The notes under the pieces: generated by a model
Database searches by the model: none
What the model saw: only the letters and a program-made list of their open reading frames with translations
Told to the model about the DNA's origin: nothing
DNA from: an uncultured Actinomycetota bacterium
Lineage (GTDB): Bacteria; Auribacterota; Ancaeobacteria; Ancaeobacterales; CAZGMX01
Reading direction: 5' to 3'
Assembly (NCBI GenBank): GCA_964526865.1
Contig: CAZGMX010000001.1
Span: 1 to 39,326 of the forward strand
Length of the DNA stretch: 39,326 bases
Shown here: piece by piece, positions 9,501 through 30,500 of the stretch
How positions within the stretch are numbered: position 1 is the first letter of the stretch
How the letters are laid out: each line of letters begins with the position of its first letter
Position numbers and translations under genes: made by a program

Positions 9501-12500
9501 GATGAAAATTACGGAGATTTCCAGGACGATGAAAACGAAGAAGTTGAGGATCCAGTCACGGGTAAAGTCACAGGTCAGGACAATCGCTGGAGAGAATTGG
9601 ATTTTAACGAACAGGGCGAACCCTATTTTGACGCGGATGGAGTGGCCCAGATGAAATATGAATATTCATATCACGAAGATGCAGTCTGGGCCTACGATTA
9701 CACGGAGTTTGATGAAGATGACCCCGATGAAGAGTGGGTGCAGGCGTCATGGGAACTGCACATCCAGACCGTGAAGCAGGACATGGAATATTATGGGTTT
9801 TGGGATGGTCCCTGCGACGGGAGCGTAACGGAACAATTCACCCAGCGGGTGGCGCTCTTCCAGGACTATCAATCCAGAGTCGCCGGCAACATCTACCAGC
9901 GGATGCTCCAGGATACGTATCAGAGCCTGCTCGTATTGTATCAGACGGTGTGCGATAACAAAAACTCGGAGCAGCAAAGGTTGTCCAGCTTTCTTGCAAG
10001 TGTGGATCAGCAAAAGATGAACTACAACGAAATGTTGAGAGTCGAGTTGTCAGATTGGTTTCCAGACCAGGCAAAAATTGCGGGATATCGGGCGGAGCTT
10101 GAAAAGCTTGAGCAGTTACGAGCCAATCAGCTCACGGAAACAGAAGCCATCGTGGAACGGCTTGATGACTATCGCGACGATATCGTCGATCTTTTCGACG
10201 ATTTAGGGCCCTACGGGCCGAGGCGCTATCTGGAGGACGGCGGGATCGACGGAATGAGAGATATTTTGGACGTGCGCGGGCAATTGCTTCCGATCATCAA
10301 CAATTATTTGAGATACCAGGACGGTGCGCCGAACAGTGACGCTCTGAACGGTGAGTTTTTGACGGCGAAGCAGCGCATCGAGGATTCAAAGGCCCAATTG
10401 ACTCCATTGAAAAACAGCGTCAATGGCGGCGATTCCACAGGCTATGGTCAGGCCGTCAAAATATTGAATGACAATCTATTGAGAGTGTCCGATGAAAAAG
10501 TCGATCTTCTGGACAGCATGCTGGGCCTGCTCAAGATGGACAAAGTGGTGGCGCAAATCGAAAGCCTGACCAGCGACTACGACAAATCCGTTACGGATAT
10601 GAAAAGCACGATCCGGTCAACGTTGGCGCGACGATTGGGGGAATTGCAGGACCGCAAGCAAAAGGCCACAGAGTTGAAGGGGGAGTTGGAGGACTTGAGT
10701 ACGGAATTGAACGCGAAAAAATTGGCAATGGCCATGAACTTGGAGCGTGCTTATGGCCAGGCTGGCATACCGCTGGACTCGGCGGCCGCCCTGGTTGACA
10801 GGATTGTCAAAGAAAAATCTGTTGCTTCTATAGCTTCAGCGGCCTGGCAGCCTTATGCAGAATTGACGGAAAGCGATCTCATTAGTGATGCAGCGGCGAT
10901 ATGGGATGCGATGAAGCCGGTCATAGACAAGCAGAATGAAAAACCCGGCGCATACCAGGATATGTTTAATCTGGAGCTCATTGAAACGCTCATAGAACGC
11001 AATACTGCACTTTCGAACGGTTTTGAGGCAAGTTCTGACATGAAAGACTATATCCTGGATACAAGTCTTACCATGAAGGTGGCGGACAGTGTTGGGAACA
11101 TATCGTCTTTCCCGGTCAAAACGTTTTTCCAGACAAGGGAATGGAACCCGACCTTGAAGGCGTATGAAGGCATCTATGACGATTTCCTCGATACTAAATT
11201 GCAGACCTACTACTTGCTAAAGAATCCCGCAAACATCAGGCTCAAGGAATATTTGGCGGCACGGGGCAATGAATTTAAGGCGGATACTACCCTTACGTAC
11301 AGTGTGTCTCACATGAGTCTTTACATGGATAGGATTCTCAATGCCAAGGGGGCGGATGCCGCTTCTCTGAGTGAGGGGTGTCAGGAGACACGTGACAAGC
11401 CGCTGGCCATTTTGGGGAATATCATGGCCTACGTTAAAAAGAATCTCCAGCTTTTTGCCAACGCAGATAAGCCGGAGGTGCACAAACAGAAGGTGTCTGC
11501 CCCGGCGGAAAGATTAGACGGTTCAGATACGACATTGGGTACGCTGTGGGGTGCGACGAAGTATTGGGCGGGAGAAGCATGGGATACGGGTAAAACAATA
11601 TATACAGCTGTTTTGGATATAGGGTATCAGATCGACCGAGCAGTGTATTGGATGTCCGGAGGCACAACCCCTGATGGAATGACGACCTCACTACTTGGCG
11701 AAAAATGGATTCTCGACTACAGGACATCTGCACTGGCCGCCGCAGAAGAGCGGGCATACGGGACCAGAACGTATGACATCAGTGCGGACAAGACCCAACT
11801 TCAAAATAGTGCGGCAATGCTGAATGTCACACCCGAAATCGCTGCCGTGATACAGGAGCGGCAAGACCTTGAAGCCGACCAGGCGGCCTTTTCAGCAGGG
11901 CCTCTTTCAACCGTGTGGTCCGGCGTGTGGTCCGGCATTGGTGCGGCGTGGAATTGGGGTACAGGGCTTATTGATAAAAAACTCTTCAAGACAAATAAAA
12001 TGTTCAATGCATTGGCGCAAGGGTTTTCACAGCCTATACGCTTTCTCAAAGGTGCCGCACAGTTGGTGGCATCCGGGCTCTGTAGTCTTGCGGGTGCCGT
12101 AGTAGCACTGGTTGGGAATTTTATCAGCGGGGGGCACACATGGTGGGATAACCCGCTTACAAAAGCGGGCGTCTATTTGGGGACAGAAGGTCTGCTGAAT
12201 GTTGCTCATGCCTTTGAGAAAAAGCTGACATATGTTGAACCAGGTGCTCTGGAAGCACAGCAGGCTCAGCTGAAAGCCACGCAAGAGCAATATATCCGGG
12301 GGCAGGTTTCGATGAGCCAGCTCATGACGCAAATGGACAGAGCAACCGTGTTGCAGAAGCAGGTGCAACAGCGAGAGATTGCGTTTTGGAGCGGCGCTGG
12401 TCTTGTGATTACGGCGATGCTCGCAAGGGATATCTTTGGTATTGGCAAAGGATTGGCAAAATTTGTAGTGGATCGGTTTGTCATGAACAGAGTGAAGAAT

Positions 12501-15500
12501 TTGTTGGCGGAAAAAATGGCGGGTGGTTTATTCAAGGAATGTGTAAGGGCATCGGCCGAAGGCGGCGTGAAGGCGGCCTTAAGAGAATTTGGAGTGGAAG
12601 GTGTCGCGAAAGAACTCGCGAGCGTGGTGGGCAAGGAAGGAAATTGGTTGGCGGCGAGAATGTACAGTGAGGCGACCTTGAAAGGCGGGCTGGAGACAAT
12701 TTGGCGGGGAATGTCGAAGGAAGTGGTGGAAACGAAAATTGCCACTGCAATGGCCGGTCTTGCGGAAAAAAGTTGGCTGGGCAGTTTGGTGGATTATGTT
12801 GTTGCTGGGTTCTCTAACATCACCGGCTGGGTAGGAAGAGTTACGGGGCTTGGTCTGGGATCGACAGATGGGGTTATTCTCGCCGGGTTGGAGAGACGGT
12901 TATTTGGCGGGACGATAGAAAAGTTCATCAGCGACAAGGGTCTCCAGGCAGGTGCCGAAATCGCGAAGGTTCTGGTAAAAGATGGTCTTCTCTCGGAAAG
13001 TTTGGCCAACTCGCTGGCATCCCGGTTGATGGCGGCTATTACAATGCGTGAGACGCTGGGTCTTGTTGGGATGATGAGTATAGGGCAATGGATGTGGTAT
13101 CGCACCTTTGGCGGGGATGCCTATCTTGATCAGTTTGCGGCGGGGAAACTTCTGAGGGCGGCACCTAAATGGAATGAAGCGGCTTTGACGGAGACGCTGC
13201 TGAGATCGGGATTGAAAGAGACGACGGAGGGGCTTGTCAAGGATGGTGTCAACAAAGTGATAGCAACGAGAGGGGTGGAGGCCTTTGCCAGAAGGCTTGT
13301 CGGGGATACGGTGGGGCTGGAAACGCTTATCATGCAAAGAGGTTTAGGGAGGGGAGTTGCTTTTGTTTCCGAGCGGCTATCTAAAATTCTGCCAGGTGCC
13401 AGCCGAGAGGGGATACTAAAGGCGTCACGCGAAATTACCAATCTCGTCTATAGGGATTTTGTGACAGCTAATGTGCTGTCCCTCGTGCCGACGGGTACGG
13501 GTGTTTTTGGCAAGTTTATGGACCGGATTATGGGCCGCGGCTGGAATAAGGTGGACGAGATGCTGGTGCCCGGATTCAGGAATTCTAGGTTCCAGCTGGA
13601 GAGAATAATTAAGGGACAGGGTGCGGAGGGTGCCGCCAACGTCCTGGTCGATAGAATTGGTTTAAACAGCTTCTTCGCGAACAGGCTCACAGGGTTGGCC
13701 GAAAGGTCGTTGATTGAGGACATGATGGGTAAAGGCGGTCTGACAAAGTTTGAGAGTCTTCTCAAGGAAAAAGGTGTTCAGGCCGCTCGCGAGGCATTGC
13801 TGGCGGAACGCGGCCTGGGTGAAAAATTTGTCGCTTCTGTAACCAGCCGCCTGGAACAAAATGTGGTGCGGCAGGTTGTTGAAGCTTTCAGCCGTGAAGG
13901 AAGCGGGGCCGGCATAGCAAAGTTTGTGGAGCTGAGCGGTGAAACCAACTTTGTCAGCCGAATGGCGCGTATGGGATATGATCGGGAGTTGGCGGGCAGT
14001 ATCGCCAAACGGGCCCTGGGTGGGGAATTTGCGGTGGAGGCGGGGCTGGGCCAGAGACTATGGCAGAGTGTTACGTCCCGATTCCTGAGGGCGGGCAGGG
14101 AGTTTAAGACCTCCGTGGGAGAATTTGGCGTAAGGAACGTTCTCTCGCCCTATGAAGAATTTGGTCTTTTCGGTGAGAGAAAAGAGTTGGCCGGAATTTT
14201 GGATTCCACCAAAAAAATGTTCACGGATATTTACAACAAGGTGACGGGCTATAGCCCGCCCCATTTGCCGGGCGCTGCCGTGGAGCCGTTCACCCGTGCC
14301 ACGATGGGACTGGTTCCGACAATCATCCGCAATCTCGCGTTCGAAGGGTTGAATCTTGGCAAGATTCTGACGTATGCCCACATCGTGAATTATGGATTGA
14401 GCAAGTTTGATTCTTCCGCCTTGATGCCGGCGTGGATGATAAAGGCGAACGATTGGATCAAGGCCCAATTTAACGCGTGGGCCCCATCGTGGGTGAAACA
14501 GGCGTTGGCACCCGTTGCAGCCGCCGGCAATTGGCTCAAGTCGTTGATCATTCCCACACACGATCCCTTCGGCGGCAAGGTGGAGAAAATAGGTTTCTTT
14601 GCCGCGGTGGGACAGGATTATTGGAACAACTTCAAGGAGGGGATCAAACTCTACGTCATCATGCCCTTCTTGAAACCCATCGCCAACTTTTTGGGTATAG
14701 ACAAGGTGTTTGGCCGGCTGGCAAACGCATACGGAAACCAGCTTGTCGGCCGCGCGGGGGGACAGAGTCTTTTTGGCGACGTGGTGGGCAAAGTATTTGG
14801 CGCGCGAGGGACCGCGTTGATGCAAAGGGTCGGCGCAATGTTTGAAAACGAAGGCCTGAGGCATGCCCAGTCCTTCTGGGTGACGGACAAGACATTCCAA
14901 TTTGGCTGGTGGCTCTCGGAGAGTATTGGATCAGGAATTTACAGCCTGAACAATTGGATATCTGGCGGCGATAAAAATACCATTCTTCATGATATAGGAA
15001 CCTCCTTCATGCCGGGCGGGTTCATGTACGAGTATCTGCCCCTGCTTTTGATCGCCTCCGGCCCCGTGGAGACCCGCGCCATCATCGGCCGTGAAAAGTT
15101 CCACAACGACTTAAGAATGGAGCAAATGAACGGCGCGAGAAATTCCATGATGGGAGAAGGCCTGGCCAAAGAAGGATTCATTACGGTCGATGTTGCGAGA
15201 AGACTGGGCGAACAAGGCACCGATGCAGCATTGAGCCGCATGCGGTCCGGCCTGAATTATGGAGCGTTTGAGAGGGGCGGCGCCAATGGGGTCGTGTTCC
15301 GCGATGCAGAGACCGGCAAGATCCTGGACATCATGGGCGGCAGGGAAATGGGCTATCGCGCGATGCTCAACATGTCCGACAGCGCTGGCTACGCCAGCCT
15401 GACCAAGGCATTGGAGAGAGATTTTACCCGCAGCGAGGCGGACCAGCTTGGGCTGGAGGCGATGTACCGCCAGGGAAGAATCGGGATCGACGGCAGTGTC

Positions 15501-18500: not shown

Positions 18501-21500
18501 AGTTTTGTACAGCCCCCCCTCTTTGACGGTCAGTCGCTGCGTTGGTTGGAGATGGATGGGAAGGGAGTCAAAGTCATTGAAGCGCGAGAGCTCAATGTCG
18601 TTGTTGGGAAAGACAAGGCCGGGATCGACATCGTGGAGCAGAAAACAAAAGTTGTCACGCGGTCCATCGACGAATTGACGGGGGATTTTTCAAAGGGCAA
18701 GGTGACGACAAGGATATTGGACAGCCAAGGAAAAAATTTCTTGCGGGCTGTTACGGATGTGAGATCTCAAGAGGTGAAAGAAGTTGAGATAGAGGGTGTG
18801 GTGAAGGAGGTCGTTTGGGATGCGGACGCGGCCGAATACAGGATGGTGATGGATATTGAAAACAGTCCCACCCTCAGGGGAGAGCGGGATGGACAGAGGG
18901 TCATGGACCGGACGTATCATGTTGATGGAAAAGGGAATTTCGAATTTTATGAGGAAACGTCGCAACGAATTGACCGCACGGAGAGTGAGAGGCAGGGCAA
19001 GGATGTTTGGGTGGAAAGCAAGACAACGCATGATTTCATGGGGAATGAAATCGACACCGTTTCCAAACAAAACATGGACCGGGTGAGAAATGCGTTTGAC
19101 GGCAATGACAAGGCCGGAATTCCACTGGCGGATGCGTCAGCGAGGATGGAGCGGTCAGCGCTCAAAAAAGAATTTGATGCGGAGGTTGGGAAGTTGAGAG
19201 AGGAAGGATCCGGTTCGTCGCTGAGCCGTCTGGTGGATATCTTTAAGCAGGTTGTGGGCATCAAGGCGGGCAATCTTTCCATGGCGGAGAGGGCGGCCTT
19301 TGGAAAGTTTCTGATGGAAAGGACGATAGAAAGGGACGGTTCCGGCATTAAAACCTTGATGGATGAAGCCCTGAAAGGGGAGGTCGGCAAACGGGACTTC
19401 AATATGATAGAGCAGGTGTCAGAGGCGTTGGGATTGCCTGATGTTGTCAGGGCCTTTGCGGAGGCATCTCGGTCAACGGACAAATCCCGTGCCCCACCGT
19501 ATCCAAAAAATCCTATGACCGGCAAGGAGATCAAGACGGTCGCGGACCTGGAGTCATTCCTGAGAGACAACTTTGTGGCGTATGCGCAGGTGTTCTTTGA
19601 AAAAGTCGGAAAGAAATCAGACGGAGGCTCGGTGAGTTGGACAACCAAACAGGTCAGCTTGCTTCAAAGAATCCTCCTGGGCGAAACAGGTCTCCTGGGC
19701 ACAGGCGGTGGCAAGACGGGGGTCAACATCATGGCCGCTGGGATCATGAGCGAACTGGGCAGGCTGATGGAGGCAGAAAATCTGGAGACCGCCGACGGCA
19801 AAATACGGCGGCAATATGCCGCGATCCTCATGACGGAAAATCCCGCTTCTTCGAACAGATACGTTGAAGACGACATGGGCGTCAAGTTGACCCATCAGGA
19901 ACTTGCCAGTGCGTTCGGGATCAAGCTGGTGAACGGGTCCAAGTTGGGACTGAAAAACCAGTTGGATGACCTGGCGGCGGCACTCGAGTCGCGAAACACC
20001 GTGGTCGTGATCGATCCCACCCAGGCCGGCTTCTTGAACCTTTCCCGCCGGGAGAACTCGCGGCTGGCCAACGCGTTGGACAAGACCACCCATTTGATCA
20101 TCGATGAAATCGACTTATTGGCAAAATCCACCCAGCAATATATCCGCAGTGCCAACAAACCGGGAGAGCGGGAGAATCAGGCAGAGGTTGCAAACTATTT
20201 GGAGTTGGGCGAGACAATTGAAACAAAATTCAAGAGGGTGGAATCCGAGGACGTGAATGCAGTCTATAACAGGAACGAGGCCAAGATAAAAGAATACGAT
20301 GAGGCCCTGGCCAAAGGGGAAATCGTTGAAAACGGCGTGAAGAAGGCCTTTGGGGCACAGGAATACAGACAGGCGCTGGAAGACCTGGGTGTCCTGGTGT
20401 ATGCAAAACAGAGCGGAGACCAGGGGGTCAGCGGTTTTACCAATAAGGCGGCGGAGAAATATTTTGCGACGTTCAAAAAGGGAGATGGCGCAAGATTTGA
20501 AAAATCGGACATCGAGCAGGCCCTCAGGGCTCAGGTGCAGGAATACGGCACCAATTATACGCTGGAGGCGCACCGTCTCCGACCCGTGGAAGGCAGCGTG
20601 ACAGAGACGCAGTACAGCGACCTGTGTTTTGCCGTGAATCTGGCAAGGAGGGGAAATGCCGAACTGGAAAAGGCAAAAGGAGGGGTCGATTCACAACTAT
20701 ACAAAGACAATTTCCTGAATCCAAAAGATTATGTTGCCAACAAGACCAACACCCAGGCCTCCTTCATCGAGTTCTGGCAAAACATCAGCAGTGCCAATCC
20801 GAGTGTTGATGGAAAGGAAGCCCAAGGCCTGCAGGTCAGCGGCACGACAGGAACAGGCGGCCAATTCCTCAACGTGATCAAGGATACCTTTGGAACGCCC
20901 ATTGCCCTCATCGAGGAGTCCACATTCGACAGGAGCCGCCTGACTGACGAGAACGGCAATGAAAGGATACGAGACGAGAGCGATGATGTGGTCACAGAAG
21001 TGCGGGCATTGGCACGCCGGAATGTTGGAGACAAGGACACCAATGCCACGGTCCTCGTGAAGGTGAAAGATGTGAAGAGCGGCTTGCCGCTCGTGAGCAG
21101 GGCGGGGCATGAGTCGTACCGGTGCCGGAGCGAAAGGGACTCTCGGGGGCAGTTCAATGTGTTCAATGACCGGGACACGATGAACGAGTCCATCAAAGTG
21201 AGACAGGAAATGGACGGAAGCCTGACAGTTGTCCGCGTTGGGGAGATGAGCAATCCAGCGCGGGCGAGTATGGAATCGGCAAGGGATGCTTATACCCGGG
21301 CGCAAAACGAGTACTATGAAAAAATGGACGAGGCATCCAGGAGCGCCATGAACGAGGCCAAGGCAAAGTACGACCGGGCGGATTCGGAATATCAACGGGC
21401 CCTTGCCGCGGAAGATGCCCTCATCCGGAATAATCAGGCGCGGGAAGTCCTGCTGGAAGACGGCACACCAAACGGCACGACGGCCTTCATGACGCTGGAC

Positions 21501-24500
21501 AAGTCCAACAATGTGTTGAGTTTGAGAGATGCTTCCGGCAAGGAGATCATGCGGTCCGGCAAGTATCTTTCTGAGATGGGGCTCACGGTAGCCAAGAACG
21601 GTCAGATCAAGATGGGAGAGACCACCCTGGGGACCGCGAAGCGATCCAACCGCATCCTTGTGGTTGATGAGTTGACGCCGGCGGAATTCATCAACCTGGC
21701 GGCCAACTATGGCGGGCAGAATAAAGACATTCTGATGACGTACAACCGCAACACGCTGACGGGAGTGGATTACCGCGGTGAATTTGACCAGTTTGTTTTT
21801 GGAATCGAACAATTGGATGAGAACCTCGCCAACCAGACGATGGGCCGCGTGGGGCGGGAAGGCGCCCTTGCCAACCGGTTCCTCTTTGTGGTCGAATCGG
21901 AAATGCAGAAGTCTCTGGGCCTCATCGGACAGAAAGAAAGACTCCAGGGACTTCAGTCCGTGTGGGAGGCAGGGCGGGACAGAGAGAATTCGGAATTTGC
22001 CCAGCAGTTTAGGGAGGGCAAGATCGAACGTCAAAAGCATCAAGAATCGGTGGAAAACAACCGGTATCAGGAGAATCTGGATCTTTTGGCAAAGTTCGAT
22101 GAAACCACGGCAACCGGTTTTGATAAATTGACCAGTTTGGAGAAAATGATGCTGGTGGGAAAATACCGCGCGGCATGTCAGGCGGCCGCGACGGAACTGT
22201 TCAAGGTGTCGGACACGGCGAGGTCCAAGGAAGTGTTGAAGCCATTGAAAGACTTGATGGACACCTTCAAGGTGAACGGCGCTGACACGGCGGCCAGCAG
22301 ACTGCTGGAGAGTGTTTTTGAGAAACACCTGAGCCGGCGGCCCACCAATGCCGACATCACGCGCAGCGAAGACGATCTGATAAGCGGCAAACAGAGGGTT
22401 GCCGAGTCGCTCTTGCGGGCACTGGGGGAAGCGGATACAGCGGCGCAAGAAGTATTGAAGGCGCTGCAGGAGGGCACCGCCAATGTGGAAGCGGCGGACG
22501 CGGCCCGGCTCAAAACAGAGATCGAGAAGGGGATCGAGGGACGCAAGGCCATTCGGGAACAAATTCAAAGCGATATCGACAACAACTTTGCCGGTGTCAG
22601 TGAAAGATTGGCGGGCAAAAAGCTGGCGGATTCACTCAGCAGTGCGAAAGACACGCAGGCAATCTATGATTTTGCGATGAGCAAGATTGCTCCTCACATC
22701 GTGCCGGAGATGCGCAGTGAGGCCATGCGATCTGAAAATGAAGTTTTGGCCAGGCAGCTGGCGCAAGAGACCCAGACTGCCAGGGCGCCTCCGGCTCCCA
22801 AGACAGTGGAGGAATTCCGCGCAAAACTCACCGAGAGTCAAGCCGGCAGGGAGGGAATGCCCGCCCTGCCCGGCTACACCGACGCCCAAGTCAACGCAAT
22901 GGTCACAGCCAGCAACTTAAATGCCGCGGGAACCCAGGAGGAAAAAGAAAGGCGCCTGGCCAGTGCCTGGAGCATGCTTCAGGGGGGTTATGCGGGTGCC
23001 TTGCAGACGCATTTGGTGTCGCTGTCCGGCGCCATGATCCCACAGGGAGCCACCCAGCAGGAGATCAACACCCAAATATTCGTGGGGTTGATGAACCGGG
23101 GCATTCTGGACACCGCCGCCGCGCAGAATGTGTCTTTGCAGCAGATTGGTTCTATTGCCTACATTCAGGCCCAGCTGCAAAGTTCGATCCCTGATGTGTC
23201 CGTGGCACTGACCGCGCAGGATTGGAACGACATTCGCAATTTGGGGGAAGGTTCTCTGGTCAATTATGTTGCCCGGGCGACGCAGGTCATATTGGGAAAA
23301 ATAATCACGGCACAGCGCAGTGATTTGAGTGCCGATGAAAGGACGAACATTGAAGCGCACGTGGTGGCGCCCTTCGTGCGGGTGCTTCAGCAATACCGGG
23401 ACCGGATTGCCAATAAGGAGCTTGGAAAACTGCCCACCGTCGCGGAAATATTTGGCGTCGCCAGAGACTTTGTCCAGGAACTGAAAAAGCAGGGAAGGCA
23501 GATGGATGAGCAACAGACCGAAGCAATGGAAGATGTGTTTGTAGACGCGTTGATGGCCAATGTGGACGGCATCGGATTTGGCCAGGACAAAGTGGAGGCC
23601 CTGCGCGTCATGGATCGCACGGTTCAGAGTGTGAAACCGGGCAGTATCCTGAAGGCCGAAACGGCGATCAATATATTGAAAGAAAGGGATCCCATCAAAC
23701 GCAACGACATGATCCGGACCATGCTTGTTGCCGCGGCAAACGAGGACCCGGAAGGTGCCTTCCGGTTTGATGTCATGAGCCGTTTGAGGCGCAGTGCGGA
23801 AAGTGGAACGGTGCTCTCGGCACAGGCGATCCAGAAAGTGATTCAGGATGTCCGCACAAAATACAACATCATGAGCGATGAAGTGGCGTACCGTTGTCTC
23901 AGAGAGGATATTGCGGGCCTCTTGCAGGGGCTGGGGCAGGGGAACCGCGAGAGAATGTTGGACGCAAAGCTCAAGGGCATGTTCGGAAGTGTGAAGCTGG
24001 GTGAGGAGGTTCCCCAGGCAAAGCAGAAAGCGGCCATGGCTCTCCTGCCCAGGTTTATGGAAATCATGACAAGCTTGAGTCCGAGCGTCCAACTCAAGGA
24101 ATTGATGAAGGCTGCCGTGGAAATAAACAAGGGCATTAGCAATCCAGAAGAGCAGTTGGATACCGGGCCGGAAGCCTTGCAGCAGCTTGCCAACGCCCTG
24201 CAGAAGGGTGTGGCTCCCATCGCCGTCCAATACATTGTGATTCAGCGTCTGAGGAATTTGACTGCGGAGAACCTGGATCTGAGCGATATCACCTTGGACG
24301 GCATTGTGGCGGATGCCAATGGCTTTGCTCAGGATGAAAAACAACTGCAGTCCCGCGCAAAGGTGCTGGAGTTGGCCGGCGGAATCCTGTTTGAAAAGGC
24401 GATGGAGCAGAACAAGCTGTATCAGGCGGAGCAGGCAGTCGAAATAAAGATCGGTAAAATCGTGGAAGCGACAGTGCCGGAGGCACAGCGCTCGGGTGTT

Positions 24501-27500
24501 CTCAAGATCATGGAGAACATGGTGTATCCAGCTTCGCTCGAGCCCTTGGGGCCGGATAATGTGATGGATATGATGCTAGAGGCCAACAACAGAATCACCA
24601 ATCCATCCGATCAGATGAGCGCGGAGACGTTCAACGCCCTGGATCCTGTTGCGATGCTGCATCTTGTCCGGCTGCAGCAGATACGGTTGCAGATGCGGGA
24701 GGCGATGAGCACGGGGCAATTTGCGCCGGCAGAGTTGGCGCAGGGAGACCGCGTGACATTGGACGACATCACAAGGTGGATGGATACGGTCAATGCAGGG
24801 GAGTATGGGGGAAGGGTTACAATCGATGAGGTGCTCGATACGGTGGTCAGGCCGATGATTCTATCTACGAGTACTGCGCAGACGGCGCGTCTTGAGGCAT
24901 CGCGCAAGAACTTGAGTTTTGAAGTACATTGGCGATCGACGTTGAATGAGGTTCGGCTGGCGCCGGTGAAACAGGCCGCAGCTCAAAAAGCGGCCGCCAG
25001 GCTGTTTGAACTTGCCAAGGACGGGAAAAACATCGCGCAACTGGATGCGGCACAGTGGACGGATGTGCTTACCAGCGCCAACAAAGATGTCAAAGAAGAG
25101 GGCGCAAAGATCACGCTGGAAGAGATCAAGAATTTTGTGCACATCCCCGTCGTAACGTTGAGCCGGCGGGAGCAAGCGGTGAAACTCTTCAACGAGCAGG
25201 TCACGCAGGATCCGGCCAGAGCGTTGTCGATCGATTTCCTGAGCGAAGTTGTCCGCACGGTGAATGGGATAACCGCCGAAGCCCAGTTGGTGGATGCGAT
25301 AAGCGGGATCGTTTTTGATGTGCCCTCACAGAAGAGCCCGCTTGCGCAGAAAGCCGCGCAGATGGTTGCGCAGCAGGGATTGCCCGCCGTGCGCATGATG
25401 ATAGCGGAAGATGCCAGGACGGGAATCGGCCAATTCCTGGCCAAGGTGAACGAGGGGGTTACGGACGGCGCAGAGCAATTGACCTATGACGAATTTGTCT
25501 TGCGCGTGTTTGCGCCCATACAAGAAAAACTGGCCTATGAATTGACAGCCAGCGATCTGTTTGCGGATGTGGTGCAGCCGGCAGGCGCCGGTCAAACGGT
25601 GCCGGGCGTCGATGTTCCATCGGCATTGCAGGATGTTTTGTCGCGGTTGCGGGACAATGAGGGATTGGAAAGAGTGATCGGGTTGTCGGACACTCTGGAT
25701 TCAGTCTGGACTGCGGAGGACAAAAATGAATCCTGCCGGTGGGATCAATTGCAGACCATGGCAGGGCAACTGGATTTGCCGGGGCTTGCAGGATTGACTC
25801 CCGAGGAGGAAGCGTCGTTGACGCCTCAACAGAAGACACAGAAGCAGGCCGACATGCAATTGGAGACGATGCTTCGGATGTTGTTCCCGTCGCATGACGT
25901 GATAGCGGGTGCTGAAATTGCACAGACGGTGGATGCCAATCCTACTCTGCGGCAGATTATTGAAGCGATGGACATCGCCAAGACACTCCGCTCGCAGAGA
26001 GAGGTGGGCCAATCTCCAACGCTGGCGCAGTTGGTTGACATGAGCAAACGGCTGGGGTTGGACAGCGATACGATCAGCACGACAGAGCGGCTCGGAAGGC
26101 TTTCCTTATTCTTAGACAAAGTAGGCGTTACCGTTGCCGCAGAAGACCTGTCATTTTTGGATATCATGTCACGGGCATTGCCCGAGGGCGCGCGGGGCAA
26201 TGTCCAATGGCAACGGCTTGTGGACCTTTATCATGGCCGAGGGATAGACGATACGACGGCAAATTATATGCAGTATGTGATGAGTGCCCTCGTCCTGCCG
26301 GGTCAGGCGCCCAGTGCGGTGCGTGAAGCGGCAGAATTGCAACAGGCTCTTTCCAATGTTGCCAACAACCGGGCGGGGGGCAGTTTTGAGACATTGGATA
26401 GGATTTCCGGGCGGCAGGTGGAAAGAGCGGCGGCCACGGATGAAGAAAATGCCGCCAGCCGCCGCGCGTTCATGCAGATCGTCGGAGTGAACATGGAGGC
26501 CTTGGATCAGGTGGAAGCCCTGGGGAAAGTGGATGCAGATATGGCCAGCCGCCTGGAGCAAATCAAGACAACCTCCTATAAATCTTTTGATGAACTGGTG
26601 CGGTGTTTTAATCGGGAATTAATGGTGATTCTTGCCCAGCCGGAGGCGTTGTGTCAGGACACTGAGCGACTTTTGATTGCTTCGGGGAAGATGCGCAGTA
26701 GTGCGACAGTTGGGCTTGATCAAAGCGCTACTGTGCGCAGACTGGATATAGAAAAACTGTTGAACAATTTTGGAATGCGGCTGACGCAGAGAGAAGGGGG
26801 CGCGCAGGTGCTGTTAGATGAGATTGCCAACGCGCAGAGTGCAGATCAGGCCCAGCGGTTGGCGAGTGCGTTTGGGAATGAGGGCTTGGAAGACTTAAAC
26901 AGCCAGTTGGCAGACCAGATCAAACAGTTTAACACGGTCAATCAGGCGTCATTGGAGCAGATCTCCCGATGGGAAGACACGCTGAGACAGCAAGAAGCCG
27001 ATTTGGCGGCCGTAGAGGGCAGACAAACCCGAGAGATTGCGACACTTCTGGGTGAAGATCTTCAAACAATAGAGCGCAGGGCACAATTGGAGACCGCGAG
27101 GGGCAAAACAGGGGACGCATTATCAAGAGTGCGGGCTGAACTGGCCAGTCTGTCAACGGCACGTGCCGACGTGATTGCCGCCATGGCGGCCAGGCAGCAG
27201 GAATTGGAGGCATTCAGAGACGGACTGCTGACGGGATTGGGAGATCGCGCAACCGCAATTCAAGCAATGGTCAAGATTGCATTGGAAAATCGCCTGAAAG
27301 ATTTGGAATTGCTGGGCAGGGCGTGTGAAGCGGACCTTGTCAAAGTGACGGGCGTGGCGCAGAAATTTGCGCCGCCGGTGGTGATGGATGCGGCGCTTGC
27401 AGATGTAAAGAGTCAACACCGGCTGGGAGACAAGCCCGAGGTTTTGGCGCAGGCTGTTGCGGCGGCCAGGACCAAGGCGGAGGTGGAAGACGCAGTATCG

Positions 27501-30500
27501 AAAGCTCTGATCGGCACGGAAGAAGAAAACAAGGCGCTGGAGGAATTGGACACGCGCGGCAGTCAAAAGCTTGCTGAAGTGGCAGGCGCGTACGGTCAAA
27601 AGATACAGGAACTTCGTGCCAAGGTGGATCAGGCGCAGGGTGTTTTAGATGCCGGCGTGAGAAATGCGACAGACCGTGAGCGGCTCCAGAAAGTTGTGGA
27701 TCAGGCCAACGCCGCGCTGAAGACTCTAGAAGATGGGTTGGCCAAGGCCATGGCGGATGTGAAAACAAATACAGCAAGCGCGAGGGAAGCGCTCGTGCGG
27801 GCGATCCGCGAAAAGAATCTGGCGATAGAGCAGGCACGGTTGGAACGCCTGACACAGTTGGGAGTGGTCCTGGCGGCTGTGGATCAAGCCCGGGTAGCGA
27901 TGGTGCAGGCAGCGTTGGCTATGGATCGGATGGGAGATTATCCCAAGGCGGCCCAAAGCTTTGATGCGGCATTGAGCGAAGAGGTCTCGAAACCTGTGCA
28001 AGAAAAACTCGACGCCATCGGCAAGGCGCAGATGGAAGACATGAACAAGCTTCGCGATGAAGCGCTCATCAGTGCCGAGGCGAGGGACGTATTAGTACAA
28101 AGGCATCAGGCAAAGATCGATGCTGCAGCGATCAGTCTGGAAGAAGAATATCAAAAGGCCGACACGGACCTGGCACAGAGGCAGGCGGCGCTGGAGGCAC
28201 TGCCTGTGGCAGATCAGGACAGCGATCTACTGGGGAAAGTGATTCAAGCGCGGGCGGATTTGAGGACTGCTTATGACGCTCAAGTGGCTGCCCTGGATCA
28301 GCGGGCCACAGAAGGTATTGCTGCAATTAAGAAAGCGATAGATGAAAGAAACGCGAAAGTGACAGAGGCGTTGAACAAGCGGTATGAAGCGTTGGCCGAT
28401 ATAACGTTCAAGGCCACAGAAGATCCTATGGGTATTCGTAAATCGCTGATTCGATTGGAGACGCTGGCCCATCAGATAGAGTTGGAGATTGCCTCGCAGA
28501 CTGCCAATCGCCAGCTTTCACCCAACGCCAAGGCCCGGCTGGCGGAGTTGGAGGCCTTGTATCAGTATGAAAGGGAAGCACTTCTTTCTCGAGCGCAGGA
28601 AGAAAAGAAGACATGGGGATTGAAGGATGAAGCGGAGCTCAAGAATGAGTATGAGCCAAAGATTGCGGCGGCTGAAGCAAAAATATCCAATGCCAAAGAC
28701 GCATTGGCCCGGACCATCGATCCTGAGCAGCGCAAGAAGCTGGAAAAGACTCTATCGGAAGCGCAGGCGGAACAGAAAAACCTGACAGAACAATATGAAA
28801 AAGCGAAATCGCAGACTGCTGCCGCGGTGCTAAAGGAGCTGGAAGCGCAGCTACCCGATGTAGAGCGCAACGCGCAGATCGCGCAGTATTTGGGCACCCA
28901 TAACGGCAAGAGCAAGGAAGAATGGCAGGCGGAAAAGACCAATCTGGAATACAGGATACAAATGCTGCGTATCTTGTCATCGGAAAATGTGGCTTCGGGC
29001 TTGGAGACGCAGTTCAATGCAACGCGCGATCGAGTCAAAGCCCAGCAGAGAGAAAACATTCTGGCCTTCCTCAAAGGGGAGTTTGATCTGAAGCTGCCAT
29101 TTGCCGGGGTCAGTAGTGGGGCACAGATAGTTAATGTGGAATACGAAGGGGGAATTGAGGCGGAGGTGGAACTTGCAAATGCCGTTGCTCTCAATCAGGC
29201 CGTAGATGCCATCTATGGCCTGCCGGATTCTGCCATCGGCCGAATGGAACCTGTGGTCAGCCTGAGAGAAGACGGCACACCGGCGGACGCAGAGAACAGC
29301 CGGATTGCGGTGATGTTGAAAAACGGCCAATACGCCCAGGCGGAGAGTGCGTATCAGGCGCTCTTGGCACAGGCGCCGTTTGATCCAACGGATCGGGCCA
29401 GTGTGGAAAGAACGCTCAACTACGCCATGGCGCTGGCCAATCAAGGGAAGTATGAACAGGCCGCTGATGCGGTTAAAAATCTGGAACTATGTTCCCGTGC
29501 GGTTCTTGACAAGCTGGGCGGCAAAGACCTTCAAATTCGCAAACTCATTGATCTGCTTTCCGGCACCGAGAAGTTGGCACAGCAGCCAAACATTCCGCCG
29601 ACAGAGCAAGTAACCAATTTATACAACTATGCGCTGGCATTGGCGAGGACGGGCAATTTGCAACTGGCAGCCCAGGTTGCCAGGAAGGCCTGTGGGATTG
29701 CCTATCTTGTTGAAAAGCCCACAGACGAAGATGTGTTGGCGTTTAGAAGGATAAGCCTGTTGTATTCGCTGGTCTTGGCGGCCTTGCCGCATGACCAGAC
29801 AGCGATACGCAACAGAAGCGATGAGCCCGGCGGTTATGGGCGCCGCATAGAGACGCTTCGCCGGGACAATGAAATTGAAACGAGAACGTATAATGCCATT
29901 GTTGGGATGGTGATGGGTGTGGTGAAGAATTTGGCTGGAGAAGTGATCTATTCTTACCAGGAGAATGCCAATGGTATTCGGTATGTTCAAAAGCCAAATA
30001 CGGATTTAGAGGAAGTCTGGGATGTGCAAGGCGCGGTCGCGGGCACATTAAAACACAGTGATCTACCCGATTTGGCGGAAGTGGAAGACGTGCAGGGCAA
30101 CGTGGGCGATGGATATATTGCATTTAGGCTTGGCACTGGGACGCGATTGATCAACGCCCAAACAGGTCAGAATGTCTTGCTTGATACAAAAGAAAGACTG
30201 TCCAACGTCAAAGTGATTGCCCTGGGCAATGGCCGGTTTGCGCTCTACGCCCAGAACCAGTCCGGTGACGGTTTCTTGCGGCAGTTCAGTGCGGATGACA
30301 CGGCGATTTCGGATACGGGAATGTTTATGGCCCGGTCGTTGGCCGGCGGCAAATTCAAGGTTTTTGAGATGATAATTGAGGGCGAATGGCAGACGGTGGT
30401 GGTGGGAGAAAAGGAAGGCGAATTTATCACACTGCCCAACACGCGGCTAGGGGATGTTTCGGCAATGCGCGATGGTGTAGCTCTTGTTGTCTGTCGCGAA

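Follow-up and report, generated by a model that had tools for sequence, protein, structure and literature searches.

A hydrophobic and basic module upstream of a SecA-like ATPase, a candidate membrane anchor in a giant bacterial protein

Giant bacterial proteins are nearly uncharacterised, and how their parts are placed across the membrane, and how chains of at least 10,000 residues are delivered, are basic questions. One such protein is encoded on the stretch of DNA analysed here (GenBank assembly GCA_964526865.1, contig CAZGMX010000001.1, positions 1 to 39,326 of the forward strand; hereafter the window), which consists of one stop-free frame (nt 3–39326) predicting a single chain of 13,108 amino acids (aa). 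On the whole contig (C1) the same frame reaches 13,155 aa and is then followed by a short run of N. An initial annotation of this locus had described a Gly/Trp-rich hydrophobic block with two or three candidate membrane helices, situated between an N-terminal repeat/β-rich part and a C-terminal ATPase, and had proposed that these two parts reside on opposite sides of a membrane. We asked whether the block is a membrane anchor, and on which sides of the membrane its flanks would lie.

We observed that the block belongs to a distinct module, in which two hydrophobic segments (S2 and S3) and five short motifs keep their positions in a second giant gene of the same genome, and that the protein has no other strong hydrophobic segment. 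From the scores of S2 and this conservation, it appears probable that S2 inserts in the membrane and that the module is a membrane anchor. The features of the window gene are listed below; residue i begins at nt 3+3(i–1).

nt 11832–11861 (aa 3944–3953), + strand: upstream anchor motif PEIAAVIQER, conserved edge of the module on its N-terminal side, from dot-matrix and motif positions
nt 11883–11972 (aa 3961–3990), + strand: S1, uncharged, Trp/Gly/Ser-rich, predicted to be helical by AlphaFold2 (AF2)
nt 11973–12050 (aa 3991–4016), + strand: Lys/Arg-rich S1–S2 loop, with 6 K/R against 1 D/E
nt 12051–12134 (aa 4017–4044), + strand: S2, uncharged Gly/Ala/Val/Leu-rich helix, the best transmembrane (TM) candidate
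nt 12252–12377 (aa 4084–4125), + strand: long polar Gln/Glu/Arg-rich helix that runs straight into S3
nt 12378–12425 (aa 4126–4141), + strand: S3, short and hydrophobic with charged pairs on both flanks, a marginal second span
nt 12426–15053 (aa 4142–5017), + strand: basic all-helical block, from composition, charge, low-confidence helix prediction and motif anchors
nt 12822–12848, + strand: motif TGWVGRVTG, shared colinearly with the paralogue
nt 14664–14687, + strand: motif PFLKPIAN, shared colinearly with the paralogue
nt 15030–15053, + strand: motif EYLPLLLI, shared colinearly with the paralogue at the block end (alignment z = 7.3)
nt 19698–21863, + strand: SecA/DEAD-like ATPase from a motif scan, starting 2,425 residues after S3, with Walker A GTGGGKTG at aa 6566, DExD-like LIIDEID at aa 6698 and GRxGRxG-type GRVGREG at aa 7281

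Hydrophobic segments and the basic block

The three uncharged stretches on which the initial annotation was built are located exactly where it had placed them (S1, S2 and S3). We scored them by Kyte–Doolittle hydropathy over 19 residues (KD19), by a TopPred-like scan on the Goldman–Engelman–Steitz (GES) scale with a cut-off of 1.0, and by a simple, position-independent Hessa sum using literature values. Only two peaks among the 13,108 residues exceed a KD19 of 1.5, and S2 is the higher of them at 1.98 (GES 1.72; Hessa sum +2.5, best 17-mer +0.03). S3 reaches a KD19 of 1.37 and a GES value of 1.03, its Hessa sum being about +3 to +6. S1 has a KD mean of 0.7 and a Hessa sum of +6 to +11 (best 17-mer +6.2), with a GES value of 1.49 and a Wimley–White octanol value of –4.6. 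Five segments of the protein pass the GES cut-off, namely S1, S2, S3 and those at aa 4486 and aa 5000, and all of them are within the block; 12 of the 23 octanol-favourable windows also fall inside it.

The helices of SecY and YidC, located in the same genome, were used for calibration, and range from 1.3 to 3.35 in KD19 and from –5.9 to +8.6 in the simple Hessa sum. S2 matches TM1 (2.03/+2.3) and TM2 (1.96/+2.6) of SecY in these two scores. S3 is at the lower edge of the range, among the helices that normally need partners for insertion, and S1 falls below it. Among the two or three membrane helices suggested earlier, S2 is a credible TM candidate and S3 a marginal one that is conserved (see below), while S1 is too polar and is not conserved; S1 is most likely an interfacial or re-entrant helix and not a membrane span.

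Single scores of this kind are not significant alone. Of the whole-protein shuffles, 80% contained a KD window of at least 1.98 and 28% an uncharged run of at least 31 residues, and a KD19 of at least 1.98 is reached by about 20% of the open reading frames (ORFs) of at least 200 aa in the genome. Two uncharged runs of at least 28 residues within 120 residues of each other occurred in 13 of 2000 whole-protein shuffles and in 1 of 2000 local shuffles.

Transmembrane glycine zippers, as Kim et al. are said to have described them in PNAS in 2005, are GxxxGxxxG-type helix-packing motifs. We looked for the pattern (G/A/S)xxxGxxx(G/S/T) or GxxxGxxxG in a hydrophobic helix, above the level expected from composition. 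S2 of the window has a composition-level stripe of small residues with a period of 4 (Ala/Cys/Gly/Ala; p = 0.34) and 0 matches to the strict pattern, and it was therefore rejected as a transmembrane glycine zipper.

The region of about 1,070 residues that includes these segments (aa 3960–5030) differs from the rest of the protein in its content of Gly (12.4% versus 8.3%, 1.5-fold), Trp (2.4% versus 0.74%, 3.3-fold), Phe (5.4% versus 2.8%, 1.95-fold) and Asp (2.8% versus 6.9%, 0.41-fold). It has the highest mean hydrophobicity of the window and is the only place in it where the net charge is positive (+5 to +9 per 300-aa bin, and up to +12 in overlapping windows). Composition, net charge, octanol windows and GES windows all single out this block, in agreement with the earlier remark that its character is unique in the window. 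At the DNA level, the maximum of GC skew and the minimum of AT skew of the window are both found here. Its richness in small-xxx-small motifs, also remarked upon earlier, is fully accounted for by composition, which alone predicts the count, and was discarded as an independent signal. The hydrophobic-moment analysis that had been proposed gave an unexceptional helical mean for the block, and a search for internal repeats in the block found none.

Structure prediction, likewise proposed in the initial annotation, gave a helical block at low confidence. Two AF2 runs, one on the whole block (aa 3950–5030, 1,081 residues) and the other on aa 3930–4260 with the paralogue as alignment, reached a predicted local distance difference test score (pLDDT) of about 41, at which secondary structure alone is usable. 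The model of the whole block contains about 50 short helices with Gly-rich turns between them. The pLDDT rises to 65–85 solely in the polar helix (aa 4084–4125), which in the models passes into S3 without a break. In a Foldseek search of PDB, no match reached E ≤ 0.001, and the similarities seen were weak and of a generic helical-repeat kind.

We also considered the block as a polytopic integral membrane domain, with at least four helices of KD19 above about 1.6, and rejected this, because it has one such peak only; the other peaks do not exceed 1.41 and have charged residues or Pro in them. Several segments in the block are aromatic and interfacially favourable. A net-positive, Trp-rich signature is also present around the clear multi-TM clusters of two other giant genes of the genome (on contigs C16 and C9), which supports the anchor. 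Given the aromatic interfacial segments, the net positive charge and the like signature around these clusters, the simplest reading is that the block is a membrane-adjacent domain on the anionic inner leaflet.

A paralogous giant gene in the same genome

Tiling of the window protein against the giant ORF fragments of the genome gave two colinear matches, on contigs C13 and C54.

C13, nt 5072–29263, + strand: 5' part of the paralogue, an ORF of 8,064 aa that reaches the end of the contig, matching aa 1000–3440
C54, whole contig, – strand: 3' part of the paralogue, an ORF of 5,272 aa from the contig end, matching aa 6525–7545 (the ATPase)

Where C13 ends and C54 starts, the two contigs share 55 nt at 87% identity, across which the same peptide continues; therefore, they are likely to be parts of one gene of about 13,300 codons. 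Upstream on C13, a frame-shifted ORF of 1,075 aa has the same Thr-rich repeats.

The blocks of the two copies have less than 20% identity and are not aligned by phmmer. A second copy of the block was not detected in the genome by phmmer either, and the paralogue was recognised via its flanking domains and short motifs. In global alignments compared with shuffles, z was 1.2–2.7 inside the block, 3.6 at its pre-S1 edge and 7.3 at its end. From the dot-matrix and motif positions, we observed five short motifs in the same order in both copies. Three of them occur as pairs (window/paralogue), PEIAAVIQER/PQVASLLAER, TGWVGRVTG/TGWVNKWMG and PFLKPIAN/PFLAPIAN, and two, EYLPLLLI and NGARN, are identical in both. 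The TGWV motif, single in the window gene, is doubled in the paralogue (aa 51–59 and 71–79 of the C54 ORF, 20 residues apart), which looks like a small local duplication.

The sole real KD19 peak above 1.6 among the 13,318 residues of the paralogue has a value of 2.10 (Hessa sum +0.35; GES 2.03) and is located 62 residues after the shared upstream motif, compared to 73 residues for S2 of the window. The chance that two lone peaks in chains of 13,000 residues fall so close, a few tens of residues apart, is roughly estimated at about 0.5%. The paralogue S2 is within an uncharged run of 41 residues and, in contrast to S2 of the window, has a GxxxGxxxGxxxG pattern (p = 0.016). The counterpart of S3 comes 150 residues further on (uncharged run of 24 residues, KD 1.45, GES 1.62) and is directly preceded by a polar Gln/Glu/Arg-rich helix of 55 residues, while the counterpart of S1 carries K, D, R and E charges. 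The block of the paralogue is also Gly/Trp/Phe-rich and has a net basic charge, whereas the rest of that protein is acidic; over the 800 aa after S3, there are 103 K/R against 78 D/E in the window copy and 77 against 53 in the paralogue. From this comparison, S2, S3, the polar helix, the basic block and the end motif are conserved and S1 is not.

These data bear on an explanation that requires no span, in which the module would be a soluble α-solenoid or helical-repeat domain with S2 and S3 as buried core helices, and its basic charge would bind an anionic partner (for example nucleic acid, a polyanionic polymer of the cell wall or an acidic region elsewhere in the chain). The many short helices with Gly-rich turns and the generic helical-repeat matches of Foldseek are consistent with such a fold, and among the domains of published giant proteins, helical repeats of the HEAT type are the most frequent (10.1101/2023.11.21.568195). 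A single KD window of 1.98 is within chance for a protein this long, and the simple Hessa sum of S2 is positive. However, uncharged runs of 32 and 41 residues that keep their position at less than 20% identity are unusual for soluble helices, the scores of S2 are like those of SecY helices from this organism, uncharged runs are clustered beyond what the shuffles give, and the AF2 models are too poor for any fold assignment. We consider a soluble module unlikely.

Topology of the module and the place of the ATPase

The three motifs of the ATPase are in the expected order, and it is 34–35% identical to the ATPase of the paralogue on C54. It escapes Pfam, which gave nothing at E ≤ 10, and a search of the genome with PF07517 gave matches on C4, C16 and C47 and none on the window gene. 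With these motifs at aa 6566–7281 and the same layout in the paralogue, the block does lie between the β-rich N-terminal part and the ATPase, as had been claimed.

We favour the following explanation, to which, taken as a whole and including the hairpin, we give slightly less than an even chance. The module would be the membrane anchor of a giant-protein family with two paralogous copies, seen in this genome only. S2 would cross the cytoplasmic membrane and, most likely, pair with the weaker S3 to form a helical hairpin with an outer loop of 80–150 residues that ends in the long polar helix. The all-helical basic block of about 900–1,100 residues would be on the cytoplasmic side, and the downstream chain would be kept at the membrane, along with its SecA-like ATPase some 2,400 residues on. 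S1 would be a Trp-rich interfacial helix of the window copy only.

The distribution of charges around the segments is consistent with this topology. By the positive-inside rule, the S1–S2 loop is a candidate cytoplasmic loop. In both copies, the flank on the C-side of S2 is neutral or acidic and the chain past S3 is basic for hundreds of residues; the N-side flank of S2 is basic in the window copy and neutral in the paralogue. These flanking charges fit the order in–S2–out–S3–in in both copies, or out–S1–in–S2–out–S3–in in the window copy only, and in both copies they disfavour S2 alone with its N-side out. As the conserved segments, S2 and S3, are even in number, the flanks of the module would be on the same side of the membrane.

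The two-compartment layout proposed initially requires an odd number of spans (S1, S2 and S3, or S2 alone), by which the N-terminal repeat/β region would be outside and the block and the ATPase in the cytoplasm. An ATPase needs cytoplasmic ATP, and the placement of this one in the cytoplasm by the model would agree with that. In the window copy, a three-span arrangement with the N-side out and the C-side in also obeys the positive-inside rule, the numbers of K/R and D/E being 1 and 5 before S1, 6 and 1 in the S1–S2 loop, and 8 and 8 in the S2–S3 loop, followed by the basic region after S3; all three segments exceed 1.0 in the GES scan. Furthermore, in both paralogues the composition switches from Thr/Ser/Asn/Tyr-rich to Glu/Arg/Leu/Ala-rich about 400 residues before S1. 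However, S1 is very polar for a span, on the scores given above, and its paralogue counterpart has several charges, while S2 alone with its N-side out contradicts the charge bias of both copies. The composition switch coincides with, and is inseparable from, the change from β to α structure.

The assumption that the YD-like region is extracellular, which motivated this layout, found no support. We found no domain evidence for an extracellular location of the N-terminal part (the first ~3,900 residues), and the C-terminal tail after the ATPase is equally β- and Thr-rich, with no convincing TM segment between the tail and the ATPase, so that to infer an extracellular location from β-rich sequence is unreliable for this protein. 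Its N-terminus, and with it any signal peptide, is not assembled (no other contig with Thr-rich repeats was found that would supply it). What stands of the initial proposal is a distinct module with at least one credible TM candidate; the conserved pair S2 and S3 is even in number. Overall, we regard an odd number of spans as somewhat unlikely, and the conserved S2 and S3 hairpin is slightly favoured over it.

The second-highest hydropathy peak of the protein (aa 9911–9929, nt 29733–29789) is situated after the ATPase, just before the β-rich tail. Its KD is 1.60, and it was rejected as a second anchor because it has Arg-Arg in its middle and a GES value below 0.6. If it were a span, the C-terminal tail would sit across the membrane, which we judged unlikely.

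Several observations weigh against the anchor and hairpin that we favour. The number of spans differs by scale, being one by KD, three to five by GES and zero to one by the simple Hessa sum. S2 is Gly/Ala-rich and of moderate hydrophobicity, and S3 is uncharged over just 16 residues. Neither AF2 model, both at a pLDDT of about 41, contains tertiary information. The charge bias of the paralogue S2 is weak, with 2 K/R and 2 D/E upstream of it, and the comparison itself involves one paralogue at twilight identity, without an independent lineage. Finally, a hairpin puts more than 4,000 residues of Thr-rich β-ribbon, resembling surface proteins, in the cytoplasm.

A more elaborate form of the anchor can be imagined, in which a conduit is built from the S2 helices of several copies, packed by way of faces made of small residues or glycine zippers. 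The block would shape or gate it at the inner leaflet, and the motor would thread parts of its own chain, or partner proteins, across the membrane without SecYEG. We think this highly improbable. If true, it would be a new machinery for protein translocation, one that is itself a domain of the substrate it moves.

Relatives, known systems and the host

The block has no relatives outside the host genome in any of the protein and contig collections searched. An exhaustive phmmer search with aa 3950–5030 among 1.84 billion representative proteins gave 0 hits. Word-seeded protein searches found no homologue of the ATPase region, of the conserved N-terminal region or of the paralogue block, and two scans of metagenome contigs with the paralogue alignments found none either. 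Neither 40 relatives nor, subsequently, the full set of 79 genomes of the phylum gave a match for the block or for a two-sequence profile of the TM region. A scan of the whole Pfam-A with aa 3801–5200 gave 0 families at E ≤ 1, and PHROGs, NCBIfam and PDB sequences gave nothing meaningful for the block. Across the whole protein, Pfam recognises almost nothing.

The ATPase query gave one weak match in the 79 genomes (E = 1e-6), on a 9,727-nt contig (G010:C131). On its minus strand, this contig has an open frame of 3,242 aa with a Walker A near aa 720. A strong TM segment (KD 2.38) is present at aa 1894, downstream of the motor, and is followed by a region of net charge +16. The contig stops 700 residues upstream of the motor.

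The searches also bear on the alternative, raised in the initial annotation, that the module targets another cell by membrane insertion or pore formation. Such a module would be stored in soluble form and inserted via a Gly/Ala-rich helix or hairpin, perhaps after proteolytic release. The 41-residue glycine-zipper run of the paralogue is as long as a hydrophobic helical hairpin, the genome is rich in giant genes, and the literature ties such genes to predation and precursor cleavage. As in the hairpins of colicin and type III translocators (PF01024, PF04888), a long uncharged Ala/Gly-rich stretch lies among amphipathic helices; unlike them, the module has no profile match, is about ten times larger and is embedded in a giant chain. 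The leads from a protein-atlas search with three queries (SseC, PT-TG and viroporin 2B) are all membrane-active, but all scores were below 0.8, a level reached by a third of the shuffled sequences. The proposed comparison with glycine-zipper and pore-forming families found no family match in aa 3801–5200 for Colicin PF01024, SseC PF04888, PT-TG PF14449 or Gly-zipper PF13488/PF13436/PF13441. Moreover, no cleavage sites or evidence of processing are known, and the module is upstream in the same chain as an ATPase that must remain in the cytoplasm of the producer. A pore-forming module thus appears quite improbable.

An arrangement of an anchor plus a SecA-like motor, as we favour here, was already described in 2023. 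In giant Omnitrophota proteins of the Archaeovorin and Dockerin types, TM anchor regions are followed by SecA-related domains without the membrane-binding parts of SecA (West-Roberts et al. 2023, 10.1101/2023.11.21.568195); the adjacent helices were proposed as the anchor, and the motor may export the giant protein itself (10.1101/2023.11.21.568195). The window protein resembles them in having more than 10,000 residues and a hydrophobic region, the candidate anchor, ahead of a divergent SecA-like motor that is embedded in the chain and is without membrane-binding parts; the TM candidates N-terminal to the motor are S2 by the KD threshold and S1, S2 and S3 by the GES cut-off. It differs from them in that its ATPase escapes Pfam and is about 2,400 residues from the anchor instead of adjacent to it, that a 1,000-residue basic Gly/Trp/Phe-rich block without detectable relatives follows the anchor, that there is no sequence relatedness, and that its host is probably of Auribacterota.

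Omnitrophota proteins of at least 10,000 aa have about 22 TM helices on average (10.64898/2026.06.07.730766), whereas the window protein has one to three candidate spans in more than 13,000 residues. Among 916 long Omnitrophota proteins, 46% have TM helices, no signal peptide and their bulk predicted to be cytoplasmic (10.64898/2026.06.07.730766). As in this class, a hairpin would leave the bulk of the chain on the cytoplasmic face with a few helices as tether; the class was defined by DeepTMHMM, and a signal peptide is possible in the unassembled N-terminus of the window protein. The present case can be regarded as a TM-poor, sequence-orphan version of the known arrangement.

The arrangement would thereby reach past Omnitrophota, with Auribacterota as the probable phylum. 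The case also defines a basic, Gly/Trp/Phe-rich domain of 1,000 residues that has no relatives among the 1.84 billion representative proteins. With one strong conserved helix, one weaker partner and one motor in place of dozens of spans, this is an unusually simple case. Because of this simple layout, the topology of the whole giant is tractable with a few reporter fusions, and the same fusions bear on the published idea that neighbouring helices hold embedded SecA-like motors at the membrane.

The genome assembly comprises 3.27 Mb in 408 contigs and is 87% complete. Its housekeeping SecA (C4, nt 22999–24524) is 77% identical to that of a metagenome-assembled genome (MAG) labelled Actinomycetota, 68% to that of a Candidatus Auribacterota MAG and 43% to that of an Omnitrophota MAG. 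In view of these identities, and of a phylum with only 79 species in the genome set, the host is probably a member of Auribacterota or close kin and not of Omnitrophota. Giant proteins have been mentioned before in the neighbourhood of Auribacterota. The SecA match on C4 is divided between two reading frames, pointing to either a frameshift or a misassembly.

At least nine stop-free frames of more than 4,500 aa are present in the genome (on C1, C9, C7, C13, C16, C18, C53, C54 and C66), and giant genes make up a sizeable share of the 3.3-Mb assembly. The giant ORF on C16 (7,764 aa) has a Pfam SecA_DEAD match at nt 10771–11535 (36 bits), bracketed by a strong TM segment at aa 3064 (KD 2.49) and a TM cluster of eight peaks at aa 4559–4988. 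The peaks of this cluster are about 1.8–2.5, mostly 2.0 or more, and those of the cluster on C9 (aa 7945–8262) 1.6–2.4. Like the segments of the window, these hydrophobic helices occur in a net-positive, Trp-rich setting within a giant ORF; unlike the single 1.98 peak of the window, the clusters have six to eight peaks each, and they have no sequence similarity to the window.

Four groundwater metagenome runs, all from one study, supply short contigs that cover most of nt 11500–15500 at ≥99% identity, with two single-base variants, 0 indels and 0 joints. These contigs are possibly the source data and thus give no independent support for the assembly. The variants are C>A at nt 12135 and C>T at nt 13624, the former changing the His codon directly after S2 to Asn.

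Within the Thr-rich repeat array, aa 915–951 (nt 2745–2855) matched Pfam ATPgrasp_N with 36.9 bits (cut-off 27; E = 5e-9). No single stretch passes alone, and the match is probably an artefact of repeats or composition. Directly past the window (C1, nt 39327–44800), the giant frame meets the N-gap, after which there is an ORF of 1,798 aa, almost purely coiled-coil, that ends near the contig end. This ORF is probably part of the window gene, which would then exceed 15,000 codons.

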